Assembly (NCBI GenBank): GCA_027021705.1
Contig: JALUTT010000113.1
Location: forward strand, 1 to 30,525
Direction of reading: 5' to 3'
From: Anaerolineae bacterium
Lineage (GTDB): Bacteria > Chloroflexota > Anaerolineae > S140-20
DNA length: 30,525 nucleotides
In this document: positions 10,600 to 21,194 of the stretch, in pieces
Layout of the letters: each line of letters begins with the position of its first letter
Position numbering within the stretch: position 1 is the first letter of the stretch
Translations under genes and position numbers: made by a program
The notes under the pieces: generated by a model
The model's database searches: none
The model's input: the letters and a program-made list of their open reading frames with translations, nothing else
What the model was told of the DNA's origin: nothing

Positions 10600-11040
10600 T
10601 CAGGCCTTTCCGCTCTCGGGCAGACGGATGTCAATTTGATGGAAGGCCGAGCGGTCGTCCGAGAGCCGCCAGGCGGTCAGCTCATGGGCCCGGCCCTTGC
10701 GCACCCCCACGATCACGTAGCTGTAACGGGGTAGGGCCTGTCGCCGGTGCTGGATGGAGGGGCGCGCCGGATAGTCGGGATTGGACTGGAAGAAGCCGAT
10801 CACCTCCAGCCCCTTCTGCCGAGCCATCTCCTCAGCCTGGCGCAACATCTCTTCTGTGAAGGGGATCATCTCGTGCTCCTGGGAGGTCCGACTCTGCTCC
10901 CAGGGCAGCAGTTCGATCACCTCGTGGGAGCCGTTCTCACCGCTGCGCCCTAGCAACAGACCGTATCCTCTACCGGGATAGGCGGCCTCACCGTAACGGG
11001 CGATGGCCTGTCGCTCCTTGGGATGAATTGCGATCCTCAT
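10600..11040 (-). CDS. Mov34/MPN/JAB (M67, Mec-like) domain protein with degenerate JAMM motif
   Basis: Scaffold GEAAYP...GLLLG, GLEVIGF.S.PD.PARPS, YSYVIV, AWRL is intact, but catalytic positions are replaced; AGGAG SD; directly downstream of cysteine synthase. Confidence 0.85.
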   Translation of the reverse strand: MRIAIHPKERQAIARYGEAAYPGRGYGLLLGRSGENGSHEVIELLPWEQSRTSQEHEMIPFTEEMLRQAEEMARQKGLEVIGFFQSNPDYPARPSIQHRRQALPRYSYVIVGVRKGRAHELTAWRLSDDRSAFHQIDIRLPESGKA

Positions 11041-11103: not shown

Positions 11104-12135
11104 TCAACGGGCTCGAGCGTGGGCTACCATTGAAGGGACCTGGCCTGCGGTCTCCAGTTCGTTAACCTCTCTCTCCTCATACCCCCACCGGGGCTCTTCA
11201 TCCCAGAAGGACTCGCTGAGGTACTTGACGCCGCTATCCGGGAGGATGGTGACGATGACGCCAGAACGCACCCGGCGAGCGACCTGAAGGGCTGCCACCA
11301 CCGCAGCACCACTGGAGATGCCTACGAAGAGCCCCCTCTCTCGAGCCAGCCGTCGGACCATCGCGTAGGCGTCCTCGGTACGAACGGTGACGACCTCGTC
11401 CACCAGATCGGGGTCGTAGACGCCGGGGACGATGGCCGTCTCCATATGTTTCAGCCCTTCCAGACCGTGGAAGGGGGAGTCGGGCTGGACGGCGATGAGA
11501 CGGATCTGGGGATTGTACTCCCGCAGCCGACGGCCGGTGCCGGTCAGCGTACCGCCGGTGCCCAGTCCCGCCACGAAGTGGGTCACCTCTCCTCGGGTCT
11601 GCTCCCAGACCTCTACTCCCGTCGTCTCGTAGTGGGCCCGGGGATTCGCCGGGTTGTTGTACTGATCGGGGTAGAAGTAGCGGTCCGGGTCCGCTTCGTA
11701 GATCTGGTGCACCAGGCGGATCGCGCCATCGGTCCCTTCCATCGGGTCCGAGAAGACCAGTTCCGCACCATAAGCCTGCAGGATGCGGATGCGCTCAACG
11801 CTGGCATTGCGAGGGATCACCAGCTTGACCCGGTATCCCCGGGCAGCGGCGAACATCGCGTAGGCGATCCCCATATTGCCTGAGGTGGCATCTAGCAGCA
11901 CCTTGTCGGGGGTCAACTGACCCGACCGCTCCGCCTCCAGGATCATCTGACGGGCCGGTCGGTCCTTCACCGAACCGCCTGGGTTGAACCACTCGGCCTT
12001 GGCGTACAGATGGACGGCCGAAGGCTCCGGCAACAAGCCATCCAACCGTAACAGCGGCGTATTTCCAACCAGGTCGAAAAGATCAACTCCGAAGGGAGAC
12101 CTATCGTTTCGTTTCTTGAAAGGCCAGGGATACAT
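11104..12135 (-). CDS. cysM: PLP-dependent cysteine synthase family protein (CysM-like)
   Basis: VGNTPL, NPGGSVKDR (PLP Lys), ATSGN, DQYNNPAN, GLGTGGT, GISSGA, PDSG.KYLS. ATG at 12135 has AAGGAG SD; in-frame ATG at 12159 is an alternative. Confidence 0.9.
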   Translation of the reverse strand: MYPWPFKKRNDRSPFGVDLFDLVGNTPLLRLDGLLPEPSAVHLYAKAEWFNPGGSVKDRPARQMILEAERSGQLTPDKVLLDATSGNMGIAYAMFAAARGYRVKLVIPRNASVERIRILQAYGAELVFSDPMEGTDGAIRLVHQIYEADPDRYFYPDQYNNPANPRAHYETTGVEVWEQTRGEVTHFVAGLGTGGTLTGTGRRLREYNPQIRLIAVQPDSPFHGLEGLKHMETAIVPGVYDPDLVDEVVTVRTEDAYAMVRRLARERGLFVGISSGAAVVAALQVARRVRSGVIVTILPDSGVKYLSESFWDEEPRWGYEEREVNELETAGQVPSMVAHARAR

Positions 12136-12354
12136 CGGCTTCTCCTTTCTTCGCGTCATCGTCTTTGGGGCAGGATGACCGACATCTCGTTCTTTCCCCT
12201 CTCGCCGGGGGAGGGAGTCGAGCGCCGACAGGTGGGCAACCGACAGAGCGACAGATGGGAACGGTGGAGCGCTTGTTCCTTCGCGGAGGCAATGCCGCCC
12301 ACGTCAGTCGGCTCAGCCTTGTACCCTGGCACGGCGTTCACCTGACGCAGCGGA

Positions 12355-12393
12355 TCATTGCCTCCGCTTGAGACAGGTGCACTGGCATCCCAT
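12355..12393 (-). CDS. Putative Cys-rich leader peptide MGCQCTCLKRRQ
   Basis: AGGAGG 7 nt before ATG; ATG GGA TGC CAG TGC ACC TGT CTC AAG CGG AGG CAA TGA; first well-signalled ORF after the promoter; upstream of cysteine synthase. Confidence 0.72.
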   Translation of the reverse strand: MGCQCTCLKRRQ

Positions 12394-12446
12394 AAACCAT
12401 CCTCCTGAGGTCACAATTCCGATGATGAAGGTTAGATTTTTTTCCA

Positions 12447-12475
12447 AGTATACCGGGTTTGGCCGAATGTGTCAA
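12447..12475 (-). promoter_or_regulatory. Predicted sigma70 promoter of the leader-cysM-JAMM operon
   Basis: TTGACA-17 nt-TATACT. Confidence 0.85.
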
Positions 12476-12489
12476 GTCCGAGAGGGGGG

Positions 12490-12518
12490 TTGCTCAGTTG
12501 GAGAGGGTGAGGTAGAAT
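12490..12518 (+). promoter_or_regulatory. Predicted sigma70 promoter of the permease, back-to-back with the cysM promoter
   Basis: TTGCTC-17 nt-TAGAAT. Confidence 0.65.
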
Positions 12519-12579
12519 GAATCCGTTCTGTCGGGCAACCATTCTTGAAGCACTGAAGGGACCAAGAAAGGATATACCT

Positions 12580-14943
12580 ATGGCTACCAACGCTCGTCGC
12601 TTTGCAGTCACCCTAAGCCGAGGGCTGGGCCTCCTCGACGTGACGATGATCGGCATCGGGGCGATGATCGGTGCCGGCATCTTCGGCTTGACGGGTATCG
12701 CAGCCGGTGAGGCCGGCCCTGTGGGCCTCCTCCTGGCCTTCTTCTTCAACGGGCTTGTGGCCTCCCTGACAGGGATGACCTATGCGGAGCTGGGGGCAGC
12801 CTACCCCCAGGCCGGCGGCAGCTACGCCTGGGTGAAGGCTGGCCTGCCCCGCATCTACGGATTCTATGCCGGTTGGCTCTCCTGGTTCTCCAACTCGGTG
12901 GCCTGCGGCTTCTACGCCATCCTCTTCGGCACCTTCTTCGTCGAGTTGACCAAGATGGCGGGCGTCGGATGGGCCCAAACGCACCTCTTGATGGGGCTGA
13001 GCGGGGAGGAGGTGGCGGTCAAAGGCTTCGCCGTCCTCTCCGCCCTCATCTTCACCTTCATCAACTACCGAGGAGCCTCGGAGACGGGGGCGGTGGGCAA
13101 CGTCATCACCACCTTCAAGATCATCGTGCTCCTGACGATGGCAGGCTTTGGCCTGCGGGCGATGATCAATATGCCCAACTGGCAGGATAACTTCCTGGCC
13201 GAGCCGCTGCCCCACGGTATCCTAGGCGTCCTCATTGCTATGGGGCTCACCTATATCGCCTTCGAAGGCTACGAGATCATCGCCCAGAGCGGCGAAGAGG
13301 TGAAGAACCCAGGGCGCAACGTCCCCCTGGCCATCTTCATCTCCATCATCGTCGTGGTCTTCATCTACCTTCTGGTGGGCTTCGTCTCCATCGGGGCGCT
13401 GGTTCAGAACACCGGCCTGCCCAACTGGGTCTACCTGGGTGAGAAGGGGGAACGGGCGATGATCGAGACGGCGCGGGCGATTATGCCCTATGGTGCGTTG
13501 ATCATCATCCTGGGAGGGCTGGCTTCGACCACCTCGGCGATGAACGCGACCATCTACTCCAGCAGCCGCGTTTCCTTCGCGATGGGACGGGAGGGGGACC
13601 TGCCGGCCCTCTTCGGACGCATCCACCCCCGCAACCGCACCCCCCACTGGGCCATCTGGCTGAGCGGGCTGTTGATCCTGGTGATGGCCCTCTTCCTCCC
13701 CATCGAAGATGTGGCCTCGGGAGCCTCGATCACCTTCCTGCTCCTCTTCCTGACGATCAACTACACCCTGATCCGCCTGCGCAAAACTCACCCTGATCTG
13801 CCCCGCCCCTTCCGAGCGCCGCTGGTGCCTTGGCTGCAGTACCTGGCCATCGCCATCCAGTTGGGACTGGCGGTCAGCCTCTTTCGGCTGAGCCCCATCG
13901 CCTGGGGAGCGACGCTGACCTGGATGGCGTTGGGGGCCTTCGTCTACCAGCGTCACGGAGCCGTGCAGGAAGCGGCCAAAGAGGCGGACACCATCCTGCT
14001 GGAGGAGACGATCGCCACCCGGGAGTACTCGGTCCTGCTGCCCGTCGCCAACGAGGCCCAGGCCCGCCAGATGGCCCGCCTGGGAGCCCTGCTGGCTTTG
14101 GCCAACGACGGGGAACTCTTCGCCCTGCACGTGATCCGGGTGCCTCAGCAGGTGGGGCTCAGCGATGGGCGGGCCTTCCTGCGACAGGGACGGCCCGTCC
14201 TGGAAGAAGTGATCTCTATCGGTCAGGAGTACGACGTTCCCGTGCGGACGATGCTGCGGCTGGGGCGAGATGTGGCGGAGTCCATCATCAGCGCGGCCCG
14301 GGAGCGAAACGCCAACCTGGTGCTGCTGGGCTGGCCGGGCTACATCGGCCACCGGCAACAGGCCTTCGGCAGCATCCTCAGCCTGATCACGGCTACGCCG
14401 CCCTGCGACCTAGCAGCCGTCCGCTTCCGCAAGGGAGGACTGCCCCGCCGCATCCTGGTGCCCATCGCCGGTGGTCCCAACACCCGCCTGGCTCTGAGCC
14501 TGGCCCTAATGGAAGCAGACGCGGTGGAGCGGCTGACAGGAGAGCTCCCCCACATCGTGGCCTTGCACCTGGTCTTGGACGGAGGGGACCAACAGGTGAT
14601 TGAGGCCCGCCGTCAGAGCCTCCTGGATGATCTGGAGATCGGTGACCTCCCCATTGAGTTGCGGGTGGAGCCGGCCAAGGACGTGGTCGAGAAGATCGTC
14701 CAAATGTCCGAAAGCTTCGACCAGGTCATCCTGGGGGCCTCAGAGGAGCGGCTGCTGGAGCAATCTCTCTTCGGCTCCATCCCCCAGCGAGTGGCTGAGG
14801 AAGCCCTGGCGACGGTGATTATGGTCAAGGAGTACAGTCCGGTCCGGTTCGGCCTGCGGCGCTGGCTGCAGCGGACCAGCCGGCGCAACCCAGGGCATCC
14901 AACCCCCGCCCCCGGTGGCGTTCCAGCACGCCCAGGATCTTGA
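12580..14943 (+). CDS. APC-family amino acid permease fused to two universal-stress-protein-like domains
   Basis: GAMIGAGIF, YAELGAAYPQAGGSY, AFEGYE, EEVKNP, SSSRVSFAMGR, PRPFRAP; C-terminal VLLPVAN, ILVPIAGGP, FGSIP.RV. ATG at 12580 has AAAGGA SD; ATG at 12517 overlaps the -10 box. Confidence 0.92.
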   Translation: MATNARRFAVTLSRGLGLLDVTMIGIGAMIGAGIFGLTGIAAGEAGPVGLLLAFFFNGLVASLTGMTYAELGAAYPQAGGSYAWVKAGLPRIYGFYAGWLSWFSNSVACGFYAILFGTFFVELTKMAGVGWAQTHLLMGLSGEEVAVKGFAVLSALIFTFINYRGASETGAVGNVITTFKIIVLLTMAGFGLRAMINMPNWQDNFLAEPLPHGILGVLIAMGLTYIAFEGYEIIAQSGEEVKNPGRNVPLAIFISIIVVVFIYLLVGFVSIGALVQNTGLPNWVYLGEKGERAMIETARAIMPYGALIIILGGLASTTSAMNATIYSSSRVSFAMGREGDLPALFGRIHPRNRTPHWAIWLSGLLILVMALFLPIEDVASGASITFLLLFLTINYTLIRLRKTHPDLPRPFRAPLVPWLQYLAIAIQLGLAVSLFRLSPIAWGATLTWMALGAFVYQRHGAVQEAAKEADTILLEETIATREYSVLLPVANEAQARQMARLGALLALANDGELFALHVIRVPQQVGLSDGRAFLRQGRPVLEEVISIGQEYDVPVRTMLRLGRDVAESIISAARERNANLVLLGWPGYIGHRQQAFGSILSLITATPPCDLAAVRFRKGGLPRRILVPIAGGPNTRLALSLALMEADAVERLTGELPHIVALHLVLDGGDQQVIEARRQSLLDDLEIGDLPIELRVEPAKDVVEKIVQMSESFDQVILGASEERLLEQSLFGSIPQRVAEEALATVIMVKEYSPVRFGLRRWLQRTSRRNPGHPTPAPGGVPARPGS

Positions 14944-17632: not shown

Positions 17633-17789
17633 GCGGTGATTACCCACAGGGGAGCGAGAGAGTGGTCCGTAGCAGGCCGTCCACGAATTTCTCACAAATG
17701 GACGAAGGAGGCGGTCCTTAATTCGTGTATTCGTGCTCCATTCGTGGACGGCTCGTCTCCCTATCTCCAAAGGTATGGGTAACCACCGG
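17633..17789. mobile_element. MITE-like element, copy 2
   Basis: About 95% identical to 5938-6095, same orientation; flanking GGTGTGGT/GGCGTGGT. Confidence 0.88.
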
Positions 17790-20700
17790 GGCGTGGTCCG
17801 GTGATCTTCCATTTCTGAGGTATCCGTTTGGCTCCCCCGGCGTGGGCGGGTCGAGGAAGGTCCAGCCGTCGGTGCCGTCGGGCCGGCGACCGTAAGACAC
17901 GTCCTCTTGCTGCGGTCCGAAGACGACCCAGTCTAACGGCACCAGGCCGTGGGCCACGTCGCTGAAGAGTCCCACCGCCTCTCCATCCCGGCTTAGCTTG
18001 AAGGCGGCGTGCAACGGCCCCTGCCCGCCGTCGTTGTCGCACCAGACGAGCAGGTAGCCCCCCGGTGGGATGACCGTCCCGGCGGGGAAGGCCCACTTCG
18101 TCGGCTCCGTCAGGTCGTCCGTCAAGTAGAACCCCGCCAGCGTCACGGTGACGGCCCCGGTGTTGTAGATCTCCACCCAATCGTCGTACTCCCCCGCCTC
18201 GTCCTGGTTGACACTGGCGTTGTCGGCCAGGATCTCGTTGATGACGAGGGTGGGCGGCGTGTAGCCCACCCGGTAGCGCTCGCTGAAGGCGGGCGCGTCG
18301 GCGGGGTAGCGTACCGACTGGCTGACGGAGTCGGTCACCGCCAGGAAGTAGGCGACCAGCGTTCCGTCAGGTTGAGCGGGTAGGGCGGCGGTGTAGGTCC
18401 GGTAGCCCGCTCCCGTCCCGTCTTGGCCGACCATCGGCAGGGGCTGGAAGCCGGCCCCCGCGCTGTACCAGAGGGTGACGGTGAGGGCCGGACTGTCGGC
18501 GGTCACGACGGCGGTCACGGTGACGGGCTGGCCGGCCTCCGGCCAGCGGGGGGTGCGGGTGACGGTGACGAAGCGGGGAGGGCGCAGGAGGTTGGGGCCG
18601 CCCGGCGTGGGGGCCGCCATCGCGTACCAGGCCCCGCCACCGTCGGGGAAGCGGCCCCAGGAGCGGTCGGGCTCCTGGGGCGGGAAGTAGACCGCGTCAA
18701 CGGGGGCGTAGAAGCGGTCGGCCCGGTCGAAGAGCCCCAGGTACTCGCCGGCGCTGGAGAGGCGGAAGCTGAGGTGGCTCCCCTGACCGTCTCCGTCGGC
18801 CCAGAGGATCAGGTAGCCGCCGGCGGGAACGATGGTGCCGGTCGGAACCTGGTAGAGGTGGGGATCACCCAGGTTGCCCAGGTCGGGCTGGTCTAGGTTG
18901 TCCGTCAGGAACATCCCGCCCAGGTCCAGGTCCACGGGGCCGGCGTTGTAGACCTCCACCCAGTCGTCGTGCTCCCCCGCCTCATCTTCCAGCGTCCGGG
19001 TGTTGAGGGCCAGCACCTCGTTGATGAAGAGGGGCGGGCGCTGCCAGCCGGTGATGTAGCGGTAATCTCCTTGGGGCCAGCCGGGCCGGTCCTGGCTTAC
19101 CATCCCCGCCGCGTCCTCGGCCTCGACGAAGTACTCCACCCAGTAGCCCTCCCGGTGGGGCACGAAGGGGATGACCGCGCCGAAGCGCCCGTCGCCGGCC
19201 GCCCCATCGCCGTGGGCCCCGTCGTCCGCCATCGGCACCGGCTGGTAGTCGGGCGGTGCCTCGCCGTAGACGTAGGCCCGGTACCAGAGGGTGACGGTGA
19301 GGGCGGGGCCGTCGTCGCGGACGAAGGTGGTGACGGTGACGCGATCGTGGGCGGTGGGCCAGGTGGGCGTGTGGGCCGTGCCGGTGATCTGGGGCGGGCG
19401 GCCCTCGTTCCGCCAGCCGGGGGTGGGGTCGTCGAAGACGCGCCAGGCCTCCCCGCCGTCGGGCCAGCGCCCGTAGGCCCGGTCGGTCGTCTGGGCGGTG
19501 TAAGTGATGAGGTCCACAGGGCCGTTGCCGTGGACGTCCCGGTCAAAGAGACCGATCTGCTCTCCGCCGGCGCTTAGCTTGAAGTTGGTATGCAGCGGCC
19601 CTTCCCCCTCCTCGTCGTCGGCCCAGAAGAGGAGCGTGCCCCCCGGCGCGATGAGGGTGCCGGTGGGGATGCGCCACCGGCGGGTCCGGCTCAGGTCGTC
19701 GGTCAGGTACATCCCCCCGAGGTCCCAGGTCAGCAGCGAGGGGTTGTAGAGTTCGATCCAGTCGTCGTAGTCGCCGGCCTCGTCGGCGGCGGTCCGGTCG
19801 TTGTCGGCCATAAACTCGTTGATGCGCAGGGGCACCGGTCGGTCGGGGCAGAAGCGGGCCATCTCCCCCTCCAGGAAGGCGATGCGCCCGGTGATGTAGT
19901 CCTTGAGTTGAGCGGGGCCGTCGGCGAAGGTGAAGCCCTCCGGCTGCCAGCGGTTGGGGTCGGCCTCGGCCCAGGGCCGGATGTAGGCGAAGGCGGCGTC
20001 AATGCGGGGGAAGAGGTGGTCGGGGCTGAAGAGGGTCTCCATCAGCTCCCGCAGCCGGCGGCAGTAGAAGGCGCGGAACTCCGGCACCGCCATCATCCGG
20101 TCTATCAGCGCGTTCCACTTCCCGTCGTACTTCTTGCTCTCCCAGGTGCCGCTGTCAATGGGGTTGTCCCAACTGATCTCCGAGTCCAGCGCCCCGCCGA
20201 CGCCCGTCCCCCAGACGTTGAGGCCGAAGGTGATGTCCACATCCCAGGGCAGGATGGTCCAGCGGTCGGTGCTGAAGTCGTGGTAGAGGTAGTAGTTTTT
20301 CTCGATCATCTCGAAGTTGCCGATGAGGACGTTGACGGCGTACCAGTCTACCCACTCGTTCACATCGAGGGTGGCGGCGATGGCCTGGGGAAAAGTCTCA
20401 TCGGACGATCCGTTGATCAGCTCAATGAAGGCGACGATGTCCTCGATCCCGCTCTCCCGGTTGGTCTTCTTGGGGTAGCGGTAGCGATACCACCACTCCC
20501 GCACCGCCGGGTCGTCGTACTCCTCCCGGTGGAGGCCGCCGTAGTAGGGCTTGTAGAGGTTGCCGTGGGTCTCGAACCCCCACTCCTGGAGAAAGCGCTC
20601 GTCCACCTGCTCGACCTGGACGTAGAGGCCGGCGTAGGCGTCGTTGATGGCGAGGCGGACGAAGGCGGTCTGGGGAGCGGGCACGCCGACCTCCCGGAAG

Positions 20701-21194
20701 AGGCTGTAGGCCAGGGAGCTGCGCAGCAGGGTCGGATCGGGGTAGTCGGCGTTCAGGTTGAGCTCGGTCTGCCCCTGGAAGGGGTCGGCGGCGGGGAAGA
20801 AGAGCTTCCAGGACTTCTTGGGCATCAGGCGGGAGAGGTCCCCCCGGTAGCGGAGCCGCACCTCCCAGCACCGCTCCTCCGCCCCCATCGGGGTGGACGG
20901 GGCGCAGAAGGTGGCCGGGATGGTTTCGTTGCGGTAGGGGTCTTGGGCCAGCCAGTCCAGGTCGGCAGGATCAGCGTAAAGGCGGTAGAGAGGGGGCGGG
21001 GGCGGGTGGTTGCGGACGACGAAGGGCAGGTAGACGGCGTGGGCCTGGGCAGGGGCGCGGGGGGCATAGGGCACGGCTGCCGCTCGAGCCATCGCCGTCA
21101 CCAGGAGCAGCAGCCCCAGGATGGGCAGGCCAACGGGCGCTGCCCCCCCCAGCATCCTGCCAACATTCTGGCGCAGACGGTCCTCGTGTTTCAT
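17718..21194 (-). CDS. Secreted CotH-kinase-family protein with three lamin-tail domains
   Basis: Signal peptide; RYRGD.S..PKKSWK, LNLNADY.D..LLR, YAGLYVQVEQVD, NYYLY, ILPWDVD.TFG; three INE.(M/L)A.N..DEAGE.DDW.E.YN...PTPG..N modules; DDGAHGDGAAGDG motif. Confidence 0.9.
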   Translation of the reverse strand: MKHEDRLRQNVGRMLGGAAPVGLPILGLLLLVTAMARAAAVPYAPRAPAQAHAVYLPFVVRNHPPPPPLYRLYADPADLDWLAQDPYRNETIPATFCAPSTPMGAEERCWEVRLRYRGDLSRLMPKKSWKLFFPAADPFQGQTELNLNADYPDPTLLRSSLAYSLFREVGVPAPQTAFVRLAINDAYAGLYVQVEQVDERFLQEWGFETHGNLYKPYYGGLHREEYDDPAVREWWYRYRYPKKTNRESGIEDIVAFIELINGSSDETFPQAIAATLDVNEWVDWYAVNVLIGNFEMIEKNYYLYHDFSTDRWTILPWDVDITFGLNVWGTGVGGALDSEISWDNPIDSGTWESKKYDGKWNALIDRMMAVPEFRAFYCRRLRELMETLFSPDHLFPRIDAAFAYIRPWAEADPNRWQPEGFTFADGPAQLKDYITGRIAFLEGEMARFCPDRPVPLRINEFMADNDRTAADEAGDYDDWIELYNPSLLTWDLGGMYLTDDLSRTRRWRIPTGTLIAPGGTLLFWADDEEGEGPLHTNFKLSAGGEQIGLFDRDVHGNGPVDLITYTAQTTDRAYGRWPDGGEAWRVFDDPTPGWRNEGRPPQITGTAHTPTWPTAHDRVTVTTFVRDDGPALTVTLWYRAYVYGEAPPDYQPVPMADDGAHGDGAAGDGRFGAVIPFVPHREGYWVEYFVEAEDAAGMVSQDRPGWPQGDYRYITGWQRPPLFINEVLALNTRTLEDEAGEHDDWVEVYNAGPVDLDLGGMFLTDNLDQPDLGNLGDPHLYQVPTGTIVPAGGYLILWADGDGQGSHLSFRLSSAGEYLGLFDRADRFYAPVDAVYFPPQEPDRSWGRFPDGGGAWYAMAAPTPGGPNLLRPPRFVTVTRTPRWPEAGQPVTVTAVVTADSPALTVTLWYSAGAGFQPLPMVGQDGTGAGYRTYTAALPAQPDGTLVAYFLAVTDSVSQSVRYPADAPAFSERYRVGYTPPTLVINEILADNASVNQDEAGEYDDWVEIYNTGAVTVTLAGFYLTDDLTEPTKWAFPAGTVIPPGGYLLVWCDNDGGQGPLHAAFKLSRDGEAVGLFSDVAHGLVPLDWVVFGPQQEDVSYGRRPDGTDGWTFLDPPTPGEPNGYLRNGRSPDHAPVVTHTFGDRETSRPRMEHEYTN

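Follow-up and report, generated by a model that had tools for sequence, protein, structure and literature searches.

The leader of the cysM-mec operon in an Anaerolineae bacterium is, judging from its sequence and that of its relatives, probably a ribosome-mediated, cysteine-sensing attenuator that belongs to a leader family conserved in this class of Chloroflexota. The leader was found in positions 1 to 30,525 of contig JALUTT010000113.1 (assembly GCA_027021705.1), a stretch of 30,525 nucleotides (nt) that we refer to as the window. All leader elements ahead of cysM lie on the minus strand (Table 1). An earlier note on the window, made from its letters only, had proposed a cysteine-sensing leader-peptide attenuator at this site.

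Between 12000 and 12650, the promoter scan returned TTGACA-17-TATACT as the sole promoter site (0.4 expected), with matches at 11 of 12 positions, and transcription is predicted to start near 12440. The -10 box ends 53 nt upstream of the ATG of a short open reading frame (sORF), which is preceded by its own Shine-Dalgarno (SD) sequence. The Cys codons of the sORF are UGC (12387-85), UGC (12381-79), and UGU (12375-73), and the cysM ATG (12135) follows 219 nt downstream of its stop. Promoter, AGGAGG-7-ATG, 12-codon frame, Cys at codons 3, 5, and 7, and a distance of about 220 nt to cysM had all been read in this way in the earlier note. Cys accounts for 3 of the 12 codons, compared with 0.67% in the long ORFs of the genome. 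The whole genome has 875 SD-led ATG ORFs with lengths of 6-25 codons; five of them contained at least three Cys, and the window sORF was the only frame of ≤12 codons among these five. The downstream gene matched Pfam PALP (3.1e-74) and TIGR01136 cysKM (370.7 bits, above cut-off), and the best solved relatives of its product in the PDB are cysteine synthases. Of the features by which leader-peptide attenuators are recognized, a short ORF with its own start, enrichment of the regulatory codon, mutually exclusive helices, and a downstream gene that makes the amino acid were present, and an intrinsic terminator was absent. No Rfam 15 family matched the window at gathering score, and a search of 12700-11900 with E up to 10 returned chance-level small nucleolar RNA matches only.

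Two competing structures involve the sORF. Hairpin A pairs CACCUG (12379-74) with CAGGUG (12344-39) and contains an inner GCGGA/UCCGC stem; its energy was -21.3 kcal/mol (z = -3.56), a value equally low in 2 of 300 shuffles. Cys codons 5 and 7 overlap its base, and the sORF stop codon lies within its loop. Helix B is a perfect helix of 12 base pairs (bp) between 12367-12356 and 12294-12283, and of 1000 dinucleotide shuffles of the window leader, only one produced a perfect helix of at least 12 bp. It is extended by CCGCUGCGUCA (12353-43) pairing with UGACGUGGGCGG (12306-295), giving about 23 bp in total between strands a and b, and the whole a-to-b stretch had -48.8 kcal/mol (z = -3.5 versus shuffles). 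As both structures use 12367-12363, hairpin A and helix B exclude each other, and this pair of alternatives, which the earlier note had put forward, was borne out by folds and shuffles. A third helix suggested in that note did form in constrained folds (12312-07 with 12229-24, and 12302-294 with 12240-32), only with strand a masked, and was statistically unremarkable (z = -0.13). The minimum-energy fold of the free window leader kept a:b formed. The fold of the whole 326-nt leader was no better than shuffles (z = -0.37) and is not informative.

We collected orthologous leaders by searching for the CysM protein in 40 relatives and scanning the upstream regions. The closest cysM orthologues carried Cys sORFs equally far from the gene (e.g. 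..CMCPARGR, ..CICPGRGR, and ..CSCPGRGS, ending in the manner of ..C-x-C-P-x-R-G-R) behind TTGACA/TAnnnT promoters. In each of them, the sORF was followed by a local hairpin whose loop holds the stop codon, and further 3' by a segment complementary to the hairpin, beyond which a long stem ends in UUUUUAUUU directly upstream of cysM. Remoter cysM leaders contained other Cys-dense frames (SACCCH, SCFTCSC, FCCSCS, PTCSCC, and VCLCCCSC). Cys-containing frames were no more frequent in sense than in antisense in the cysM leaders of Acidobacteriota, Armatimonadota, and Planctomycetota, whose orthologues are equally similar in protein (61-70%); over all 106 loci scanned, the counts were 25 versus 19. 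Within Chloroflexota, leaders of cysM orthologues and of other sulfur genes share the in-frame Cys sORF at one position and helix B covaries, as the earlier note would have it. Its CxCxC pattern stood in part: the last two Cys codons align with an invariant UGY-NNN-UGU pair, while a third Cys is particular to the window copy.

Two covariance models were used to determine how widespread the leader is. R1 was built from seven aligned leaders, the window included, with the long-range helix as the RNAalifold consensus, and R2 from 40 matches. Among 151 genomes sampled from the window's class, R1 matched 24 and R2 matched 34; the proposed attenuator was supported at the level of sensor and family and reached wider than the earlier note had thought. 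The R1 matches examined in this sample all had an sORF with the CxC pair, except one cut by a contig end (L134). In a sample of the phylum, R1 matched 12 of 151 genomes, 8 of the 12 within the class, counting the window's own genome; one match outside the class was convincing (L145). R1 matches L143 and L148 (genome G230) were rejected as multicopy, near-perfect palindromic repeats, CCAGGGCGGGGGC...GCCCCCGCCCTGG, which look like REP-type (repetitive extragenic palindromic) intergenic repeats, and L144 and L147 were rejected as coding-sequence-like stretches without an sORF. Across 80 cysM loci from other phyla and Thermoflexus, strong R2 matches occurred solely in 3 Thermoflexus records, and 80 metagenome cysM loci gave 2. 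Thermoflexus belongs to Chloroflexota in the NCBI lineage, and the window's class includes genomes with leaders near-identical to these GenBank records. The window, itself among the seven sequences on which R1 was trained, scored 70.6 bits with that model and 53.6 bits with R2, and it carries the family features UGY-NNN-UGU, a1 GCGG(G/A)G, and b2 C(C/U)CCGC. A loose regular expression for the core motif, run over the genome, returned mostly coding-region noise. A metagenome scan for nearer relatives of the window cysM found none above 71% identity, which is too distant for phylogenetic footprinting of the output region particular to the window.

Variants of the leader were also observed. Seven leaders (L160, L163, L165, L169, L172, L175, and L178) have a UAG stop one codon past the second Cys, overlapping the start of a1 (..C-I-C-L*); leaders of this subtype precede ThiS, YeeE, and cysteine synthase genes. 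Tandem leaders, each with its own CxC sORF, occur in L135 (1024-1132 and 1271-1379), L123 (1074-1173 and 1501-1605), and L130 (about 110 nt apart). Those of L123 and L130 precede genes of the sulfite reductase family, and the gene after L135 had no family match.

We then asked whether the frame is read, using a 40-row alignment from which antisense matches of the palindromic helix had been excluded by an E-value cut. An in-frame ATG preceded UGY-NNN-UGU in 38 of 40 leaders, compared with 1 and 12 of 40 for the alternative frames; the two leaders without it were one contig edge and one GTG/TTG start. In 27 of 40 leaders, the distance from the first aligned Cys codon to the stop was exactly 24 nt; it was also 24 in the window row (L116), where the stop falls in the local-hairpin loop as in the family. 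The codon between the Cys pair varied (ATC 22, TCC 5, TTG 3, ATG 2, ACC 2, and single others, AGA among them), and the first conserved Cys codon changed synonymously (UGC 35, UGU 5). By eye, some relatives look leaderless (L005, L010, and L012).

The RNA structure was likewise conserved in the 40 rows. The model helices were paired in 88.5% of cells, compared with 69.9% in shuffles. The long-range helix showed changes on both sides in 22 of 25 pairs; helix 1 was paired in 95.9% of cells, with two-sided changes in 8 of 11 pairs. The covariation score was 0.373, compared with 0.140 in shuffles; none of 500 shuffles reached it, and control partners slid by 1-3 columns gave 0.06-0.10. The best-covarying pairs lie between invariant anchors on both strands, e.g. 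column 30 with column 202 (GC 15, AU 13, CG 7). The window keeps the helix perfect by compensatory GGAGG/CCUCC and CAAUG/CAUUG, in place of the GGGGG/CCCCC and CGUU/AACG of others. When each sequence was folded by itself, 36 of 40 leaders had the a1 core paired within a local hairpin. Some hairpin with a U-tract was present in 32 of 40, its 5' arm within strand b in 21 of 40, strand b of relatives doubling as the 5' arm of the terminator; eight leaders, including the window, lacked any hairpin with a U-tract. The geometry of the family is the trp pattern: Cys codons at the base of 1:2, the stop in its loop, a covarying 2:3 helix, and a 3:4 terminator.

The genes that follow the leaders mostly deal with sulfur. 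We scanned the first long ORF after each match. In a first set, 19 of 20 such ORFs were sulfur/cysteine genes, namely rhodanese/3-mercaptopyruvate sulfurtransferase (7), cysteine synthase (5), the NirA/sulfite reductase family (5), an Rrf2/CymR-like regulator (1), and desampylase/Mec (1). In a second set, the count was 12 of 25 (PALP 4, ThiS 2, NIR_SIR 2, Sulf_transp 2, ThiS-rhodanese-ThiF 1, and rhodanese 1); the remainder included HemC-HemD (1), DUF4395 (1), an SCO4226-like protein (1), and 10 ORFs without a family, ORFs having been picked in a crude way.

Furthermore, R2 found a second copy of the leader in the window's genome (contig C171, 34690-34583, minus strand). This copy has its own promoter, TGGACA-17-TATAAT, and an sORF containing ..KCICTRRAQ.., and precedes a ThiS-Sulf_transp (YeeE-like) fusion followed by a triple-rhodanese-ThiF gene. 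Its a:b is one long hairpin (about 32 bp) inside a longer sORF that reads through. In folds, the stretch after b had two possible partners, the Cys-codon region and the 5' arm of an 11-bp hairpin that runs into U6; the terminator scan left this hairpin uncalled, as its loop has 9 nt and the limit was 8 nt. A 10-bp anti-SD:SD pairing, UGCCUCCUUGC with GCAAGGAGGGA, was present in all folds examined. Together, the window cysM-mec genes and the second-copy operon constitute the sulfur-carrier (CysO-type) route to cysteine. By tblastn at E < 1e-15, the genome (assembly 94.9% complete) yielded no sulfite reductase homologue, which suggests thiosulfate- or sulfur-carrier-based cysteine synthesis.

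From this anatomy, we infer the following order of ribosome stalling and folding. The sigma-70-type promoter would give a leader of about 300 nt, with ribosomes loading on the SD-led 12-codon sORF. When Cys-tRNA is scarce, a ribosome would stall at the UGC/UGU codons in the base of hairpin A and open it, and the freed strand a would pair with strand b, some 50-85 nt downstream, to form the covarying long-range helix. When Cys-tRNA is plentiful, the ribosome would proceed as far as the stop codon, within the loop of hairpin A, and cover strand a; after its release, hairpin A would re-form, leaving b to pair with c. In most relatives, b:c would be the stem of an intrinsic terminator, so that plentiful cysteine would stop transcription and scarcity would permit it, as in the trp operon.

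Several observations weigh against this reading. No terminator-like site was found in 12000-12650, and no U-run occurs anywhere in the window leader. The excess of C over G after its strand b is a weak hint of a Rho utilization (rut) site, at the 89th percentile of upstream regions. The b:c stretch was not more stable than shuffles (128/300). The best duplex of leader and cysM SD had -19.2 kcal/mol, compared with a shuffled mean of -19.1, and 87 of 200 shuffled SDs were as good. Folding of the window leader with a masked ribosome gave no clean ON/OFF at the cysM SD, and the trend was if anything reversed (probability of being unpaired 0.4-0.5 with a:b formed and 0.6-0.8 with b:c). In masked-ribosome minimum-energy folds of 12 leaders, the terminator was kept in every state, and the model therefore rests on kinetics. 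The 40 rows are not independent, as many are close kin and seven are near-identical Thermoflexus-type leaders, and the alignment scored for covariation was fitted to the model, which favours structure. The second conserved Cys codon is UGU in 40 of 40 rows, yet only 22% of the Cys codons of the genome (66% G+C) are UGU, and a1 (GCGGGG) and CCCCGC are almost invariant across the family. With UGU invariant and strand a1 near-invariant, part of the apparent peptide conservation is clearly RNA-level constraint; the invariant UGU may reflect selection for a wobble-decoded codon or RNA-level constraint. Finally, neither R1 nor R2 found the element in any of three related genomes of the window's own family.

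The read-out of the window copy was considered separately. The earlier note had remarked on the missing U-rich terminator; this is correct for the window copy, and most relatives do have one. Strand c occupies the same position as the 3' arm of the relatives' terminator, but no U's follow it: by eye, the window has GUCGGCGCUCGAC-UCCCUCCCCC where L002 has GUCGGUUGGUC-UUUUUAUUU. The pyrimidine tract at this position lies within a 70-nt stretch of 33 C and 14 G after strand b. Canonical terminators of hairpin and U-tract are rare in the whole genome, being called at 57 of 4912 3' ends of long frames compared with 20 of 4912 internal controls, and Rho is encoded (624 bits). Given this rarity, the missing U-tract is a habit of the organism and not a defect peculiar to the window leader, and the rarity together with the presence of Rho makes a non-canonical output plausible, as opposed to decay. 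As output of the window copy, we tentatively rank Rho-dependent or other U-tract-independent termination first. An effect on translation or mRNA stability, possible but doubtful, comes second, a weakened or lost output, which we regard as rather unlikely, third, and any other output fourth. As no intrinsic terminator was found in it, we class the window copy as working like a leader-peptide attenuator and as belonging to the homologous leader family, but not as a proven transcription attenuator.

Among the other explanations, the one that fares best is that the sensor has been conserved while the output of the window copy decayed, the terminator U-tract having been lost in a 66% G+C genome and cysM having become constitutive or otherwise controlled. 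This seems unlikely to us. The replacement of UUUUUAUUU by UCCCUCCCCC, the unremarkable b:c stretch, the failure to find an anti-SD, and the free-RNA fold that keeps a:b are what such decay would leave behind. Against it, nothing is broken in the sORF and its SD, in hairpin A, or in the 23-bp a:b helix, each of which is improbable on its own. In addition, the compensatory changes that keep a1:b2 perfect argue for continuing selection, and terminators are scarce throughout a genome that has Rho.

Slightly more doubtful is a translational attenuator of the mycobacterial type, in which stalling would expose the cysM ribosome-binding site without termination of transcription. The polycysteine sORF Ms5788A of M. 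smegmatis reportedly acts on translation with its Cys tract pairing a downstream SD; the window has no terminator, and the second copy does show anti-SD:SD pairing in folds. In the window itself, however, no leader segment pairs with the cysM SD region beyond chance, the Cys tract is not paired with this SD, and the predicted accessibility of the SD shifts little and in the wrong direction.

It is improbable, though worth considering, that the family works by nascent-peptide or codon-specific ribosome arrest, reading cysteine or a sulfur metabolite directly as TnaC does tryptophan, and coupled to Rho in U-tract-poor genomes. What raises this reading is that UGU, a wobble-decoded codon, is invariant, that the stop position is fixed, and that the C-x-C-x-x-R-G tail is conserved. 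If true, one arrest-peptide switch with interchangeable outputs would govern the whole CysO/CysM thiosulfate-to-cysteine route.

More improbable still is a structured RNA, i.e. a riboswitch or a protein- or tRNA-binding leader sensing a sulfur metabolite, with the sORF as a by-product. Nucleotide-level invariance of UGU, GCGGGG, and CCCCGC, the covarying long helix, and control of a whole regulon, as with riboswitches, would all suit such an RNA. Nevertheless, the in-frame ATG (38 of 40 versus 1 and 12) and the stop position fixed in frame speak for translation, as does a middle codon free to change at each of its three positions between Cys codons that stay constant. The Cys codons are the only conserved unpaired bases outside the helices, divergent leaders missed or weakly scored by the models still have runs of 3-5 Cys codons, and no Rfam family matches. 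That a Cys-rich short frame and GC-rich helices came together by chance in an intergenic region of high G+C content can hardly be entertained. One could cite for it the unremarkable whole-leader fold and the abundance of short Cys frames on both strands of GC-rich DNA, but conservation, covariation, frame statistics, gene association, and helix and sORF statistics contradict it.

Table 1. Positions of leader, operon, and second-copy features (window positions unless a contig is named).
Feature	Position	Strand	Basis
-35 hexamer TTGACA	12470..12475	-	promoter scan
-10 hexamer TATACT, spacer 17 nt	12447..12452	-	promoter scan
SD of sORF, AGGAGG, then 7 nt and ATG 12393-12391	12401..12406	-	sequence
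Leader sORF MGCQCTCLKRRQ, 12 codons + stop UGA (12357-12355)	12355..12393	-	sequence, translation
Hairpin A, local, proposed anti-antiterminator (1:2 analogue)	12336..12382	-	fold vs shuffles
Strand a, 5' strand of long-range helix; a1 12367-12356 GCGGAGGCAAUG, a2 12353-12343	12343..12367	-	
Strand b, 3' strand of long-range helix; b1 12306-12295, b2 12294-12283 CAUUGCCUCCGC	12283..12306	-	
Strand c, GUUGCCCAC 12240-32 + GUCGGC 12229-24; alternative partner of b and 12312-07	12224..12240	-	constrained folds
Pyrimidine, C-rich tract CUCGACUCCCUCCCCC, at relatives' U-tract position	12207..12222	-	
cysM, cysteine synthase (CysK/CysM family), 343-residue pyridoxal phosphate enzyme; SD GGAG 12146-12143	11104..12135	-	
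JAB/MPN (Mec-like) gene after cysM	10600..11040	-	Pfam Prok-JAB, 1e-08
Second-copy locus (L158)	C171:34818-32835, on to ~30500	-	R2, promoter scan, family scan

The JAB/Mec-like gene is probably in one operon with cysM. At 12517-14943 (+), in divergent orientation to the leader promoter, lies a gene for an amino-acid permease with two fused universal-stress-protein (Usp) domains. Unrelated to the leader are a 1158-residue CotH-kinase protein with three lamin-tail domains (17718-21194, -) and a single-domain KaiC-like ATPase (2004-2774, -).

The classical leader-peptide transcription attenuators are those of the trp, his, leu, thr, and phe operons of E. coli and Salmonella (outlined in the introduction to bioRxiv 10.1101/834739). 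The leader family shares with them a short ORF rich in codons for the end product, overlapping helices 1:2, 2:3, and 3:4, regulatory codons at the base of the first hairpin, and, in most members, an intrinsic terminator ahead of biosynthetic genes. Unlike them, it senses cysteine through only two conserved regulatory codons, one codon apart, has its stop fixed in the hairpin loop, and serves a whole sulfur regulon with one type of element. Its terminator is a long irregular hairpin, and the window copy lacks the U-tract.

Cys-codon leaders have been described in other phyla. Mycobacterial polycysteine leaderless sORFs have been studied experimentally and are reported to act on translation via SD pairing (Canestrari et al., bioRxiv 10.1101/834739). 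As described there, they too lie ahead of cysteine/sulfur genes in several operons per genome and respond to Cys-tRNA supply via stalling (shown or proposed). They differ in being leaderless with consecutive Cys codons, whereas the window sORF is SD-led with alternating CxCxC, and in a Cys tract that pairs with a downstream SD, whereas the window has no SD pairing and its relatives have intrinsic terminators. Neither the leaderless start nor the Cys tract:SD pairing, both of which define the mycobacterial class, is found in the window. There is no sequence homology between the two, and R1 and R2 matches were confined to Chloroflexota in what was searched. Cys leader peptides have also been predicted in cys/cbs operons of Mycobacterium, Propionibacterium, and Bifidobacterium, with Rho suggested (Seliverstov et al. 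2005, PMC1262725). They resemble the window in having Cys codons near the stop and no recognisable terminator; the present family differs in phylum, in its unrelated sequence, in its covarying helix system, and in the terminators of most relatives. For the uORFC-8-2 motif ahead of cysS in Rhodobacterales, as for the present family, the prediction comes from comparative genomics alone (Brewer et al. 2021, PMC8632094). The motif shares a conserved upstream ORF with two conserved Cys codons within the first stem and, with most leaders of our family, a terminator and U-run, but its Cys codons are in tandem at positions 14-15, and it belongs to a tRNA synthetase gene rather than to biosynthesis, to Alphaproteobacteria, and to a different structure.

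For the terminator-less output of the window, with Rho encoded, leader-ORF-controlled Rho-dependent attenuators offer a possible model. One such attenuator is mgtL/mgtA. Another is tnaC-tnaA of E. coli, as cited in PMC1262725. They differ from the window, where C-richness as a rut-site hint is unremarkable and fold-based reasoning gives the wrong regulatory sign.

Full-text searches, with subscription-only literature outside their scope, found no description of Cys leaders in Chloroflexi/Chloroflexota, and Rfam 15 has no matching family. The Chloroflexota family is therefore apparently undescribed, although the type of mechanism is known; the novelty suggested in the earlier note holds for Chloroflexota only, since predicted or demonstrated Cys leaders were already on record for Actinobacteria and for cysS of Rhodobacterales. 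Within the family, the window copy is notable for its three Cys codons, SD-led start, and lack of a recognisable terminator.

Among common amino acids, cysteine is the one for which trp-style terminator attenuation is hardly documented, and the studied mycobacterial case is translational. The terminator-less window copy and the second copy with its hairpin and U6 form a natural pair, in which one sensor would be wired to different outputs in a genome where canonical terminators are rare. A conserved, covarying Cys leader ahead of cysteine synthases, sulfite reductase, rhodanese, CysO/ThiS, YeeE, and a CymR-like regulator would delimit the sulfur regulon in a class of bacteria that is little studied and for the most part uncultured, and would serve as a marker for annotating sulfur genes in it.

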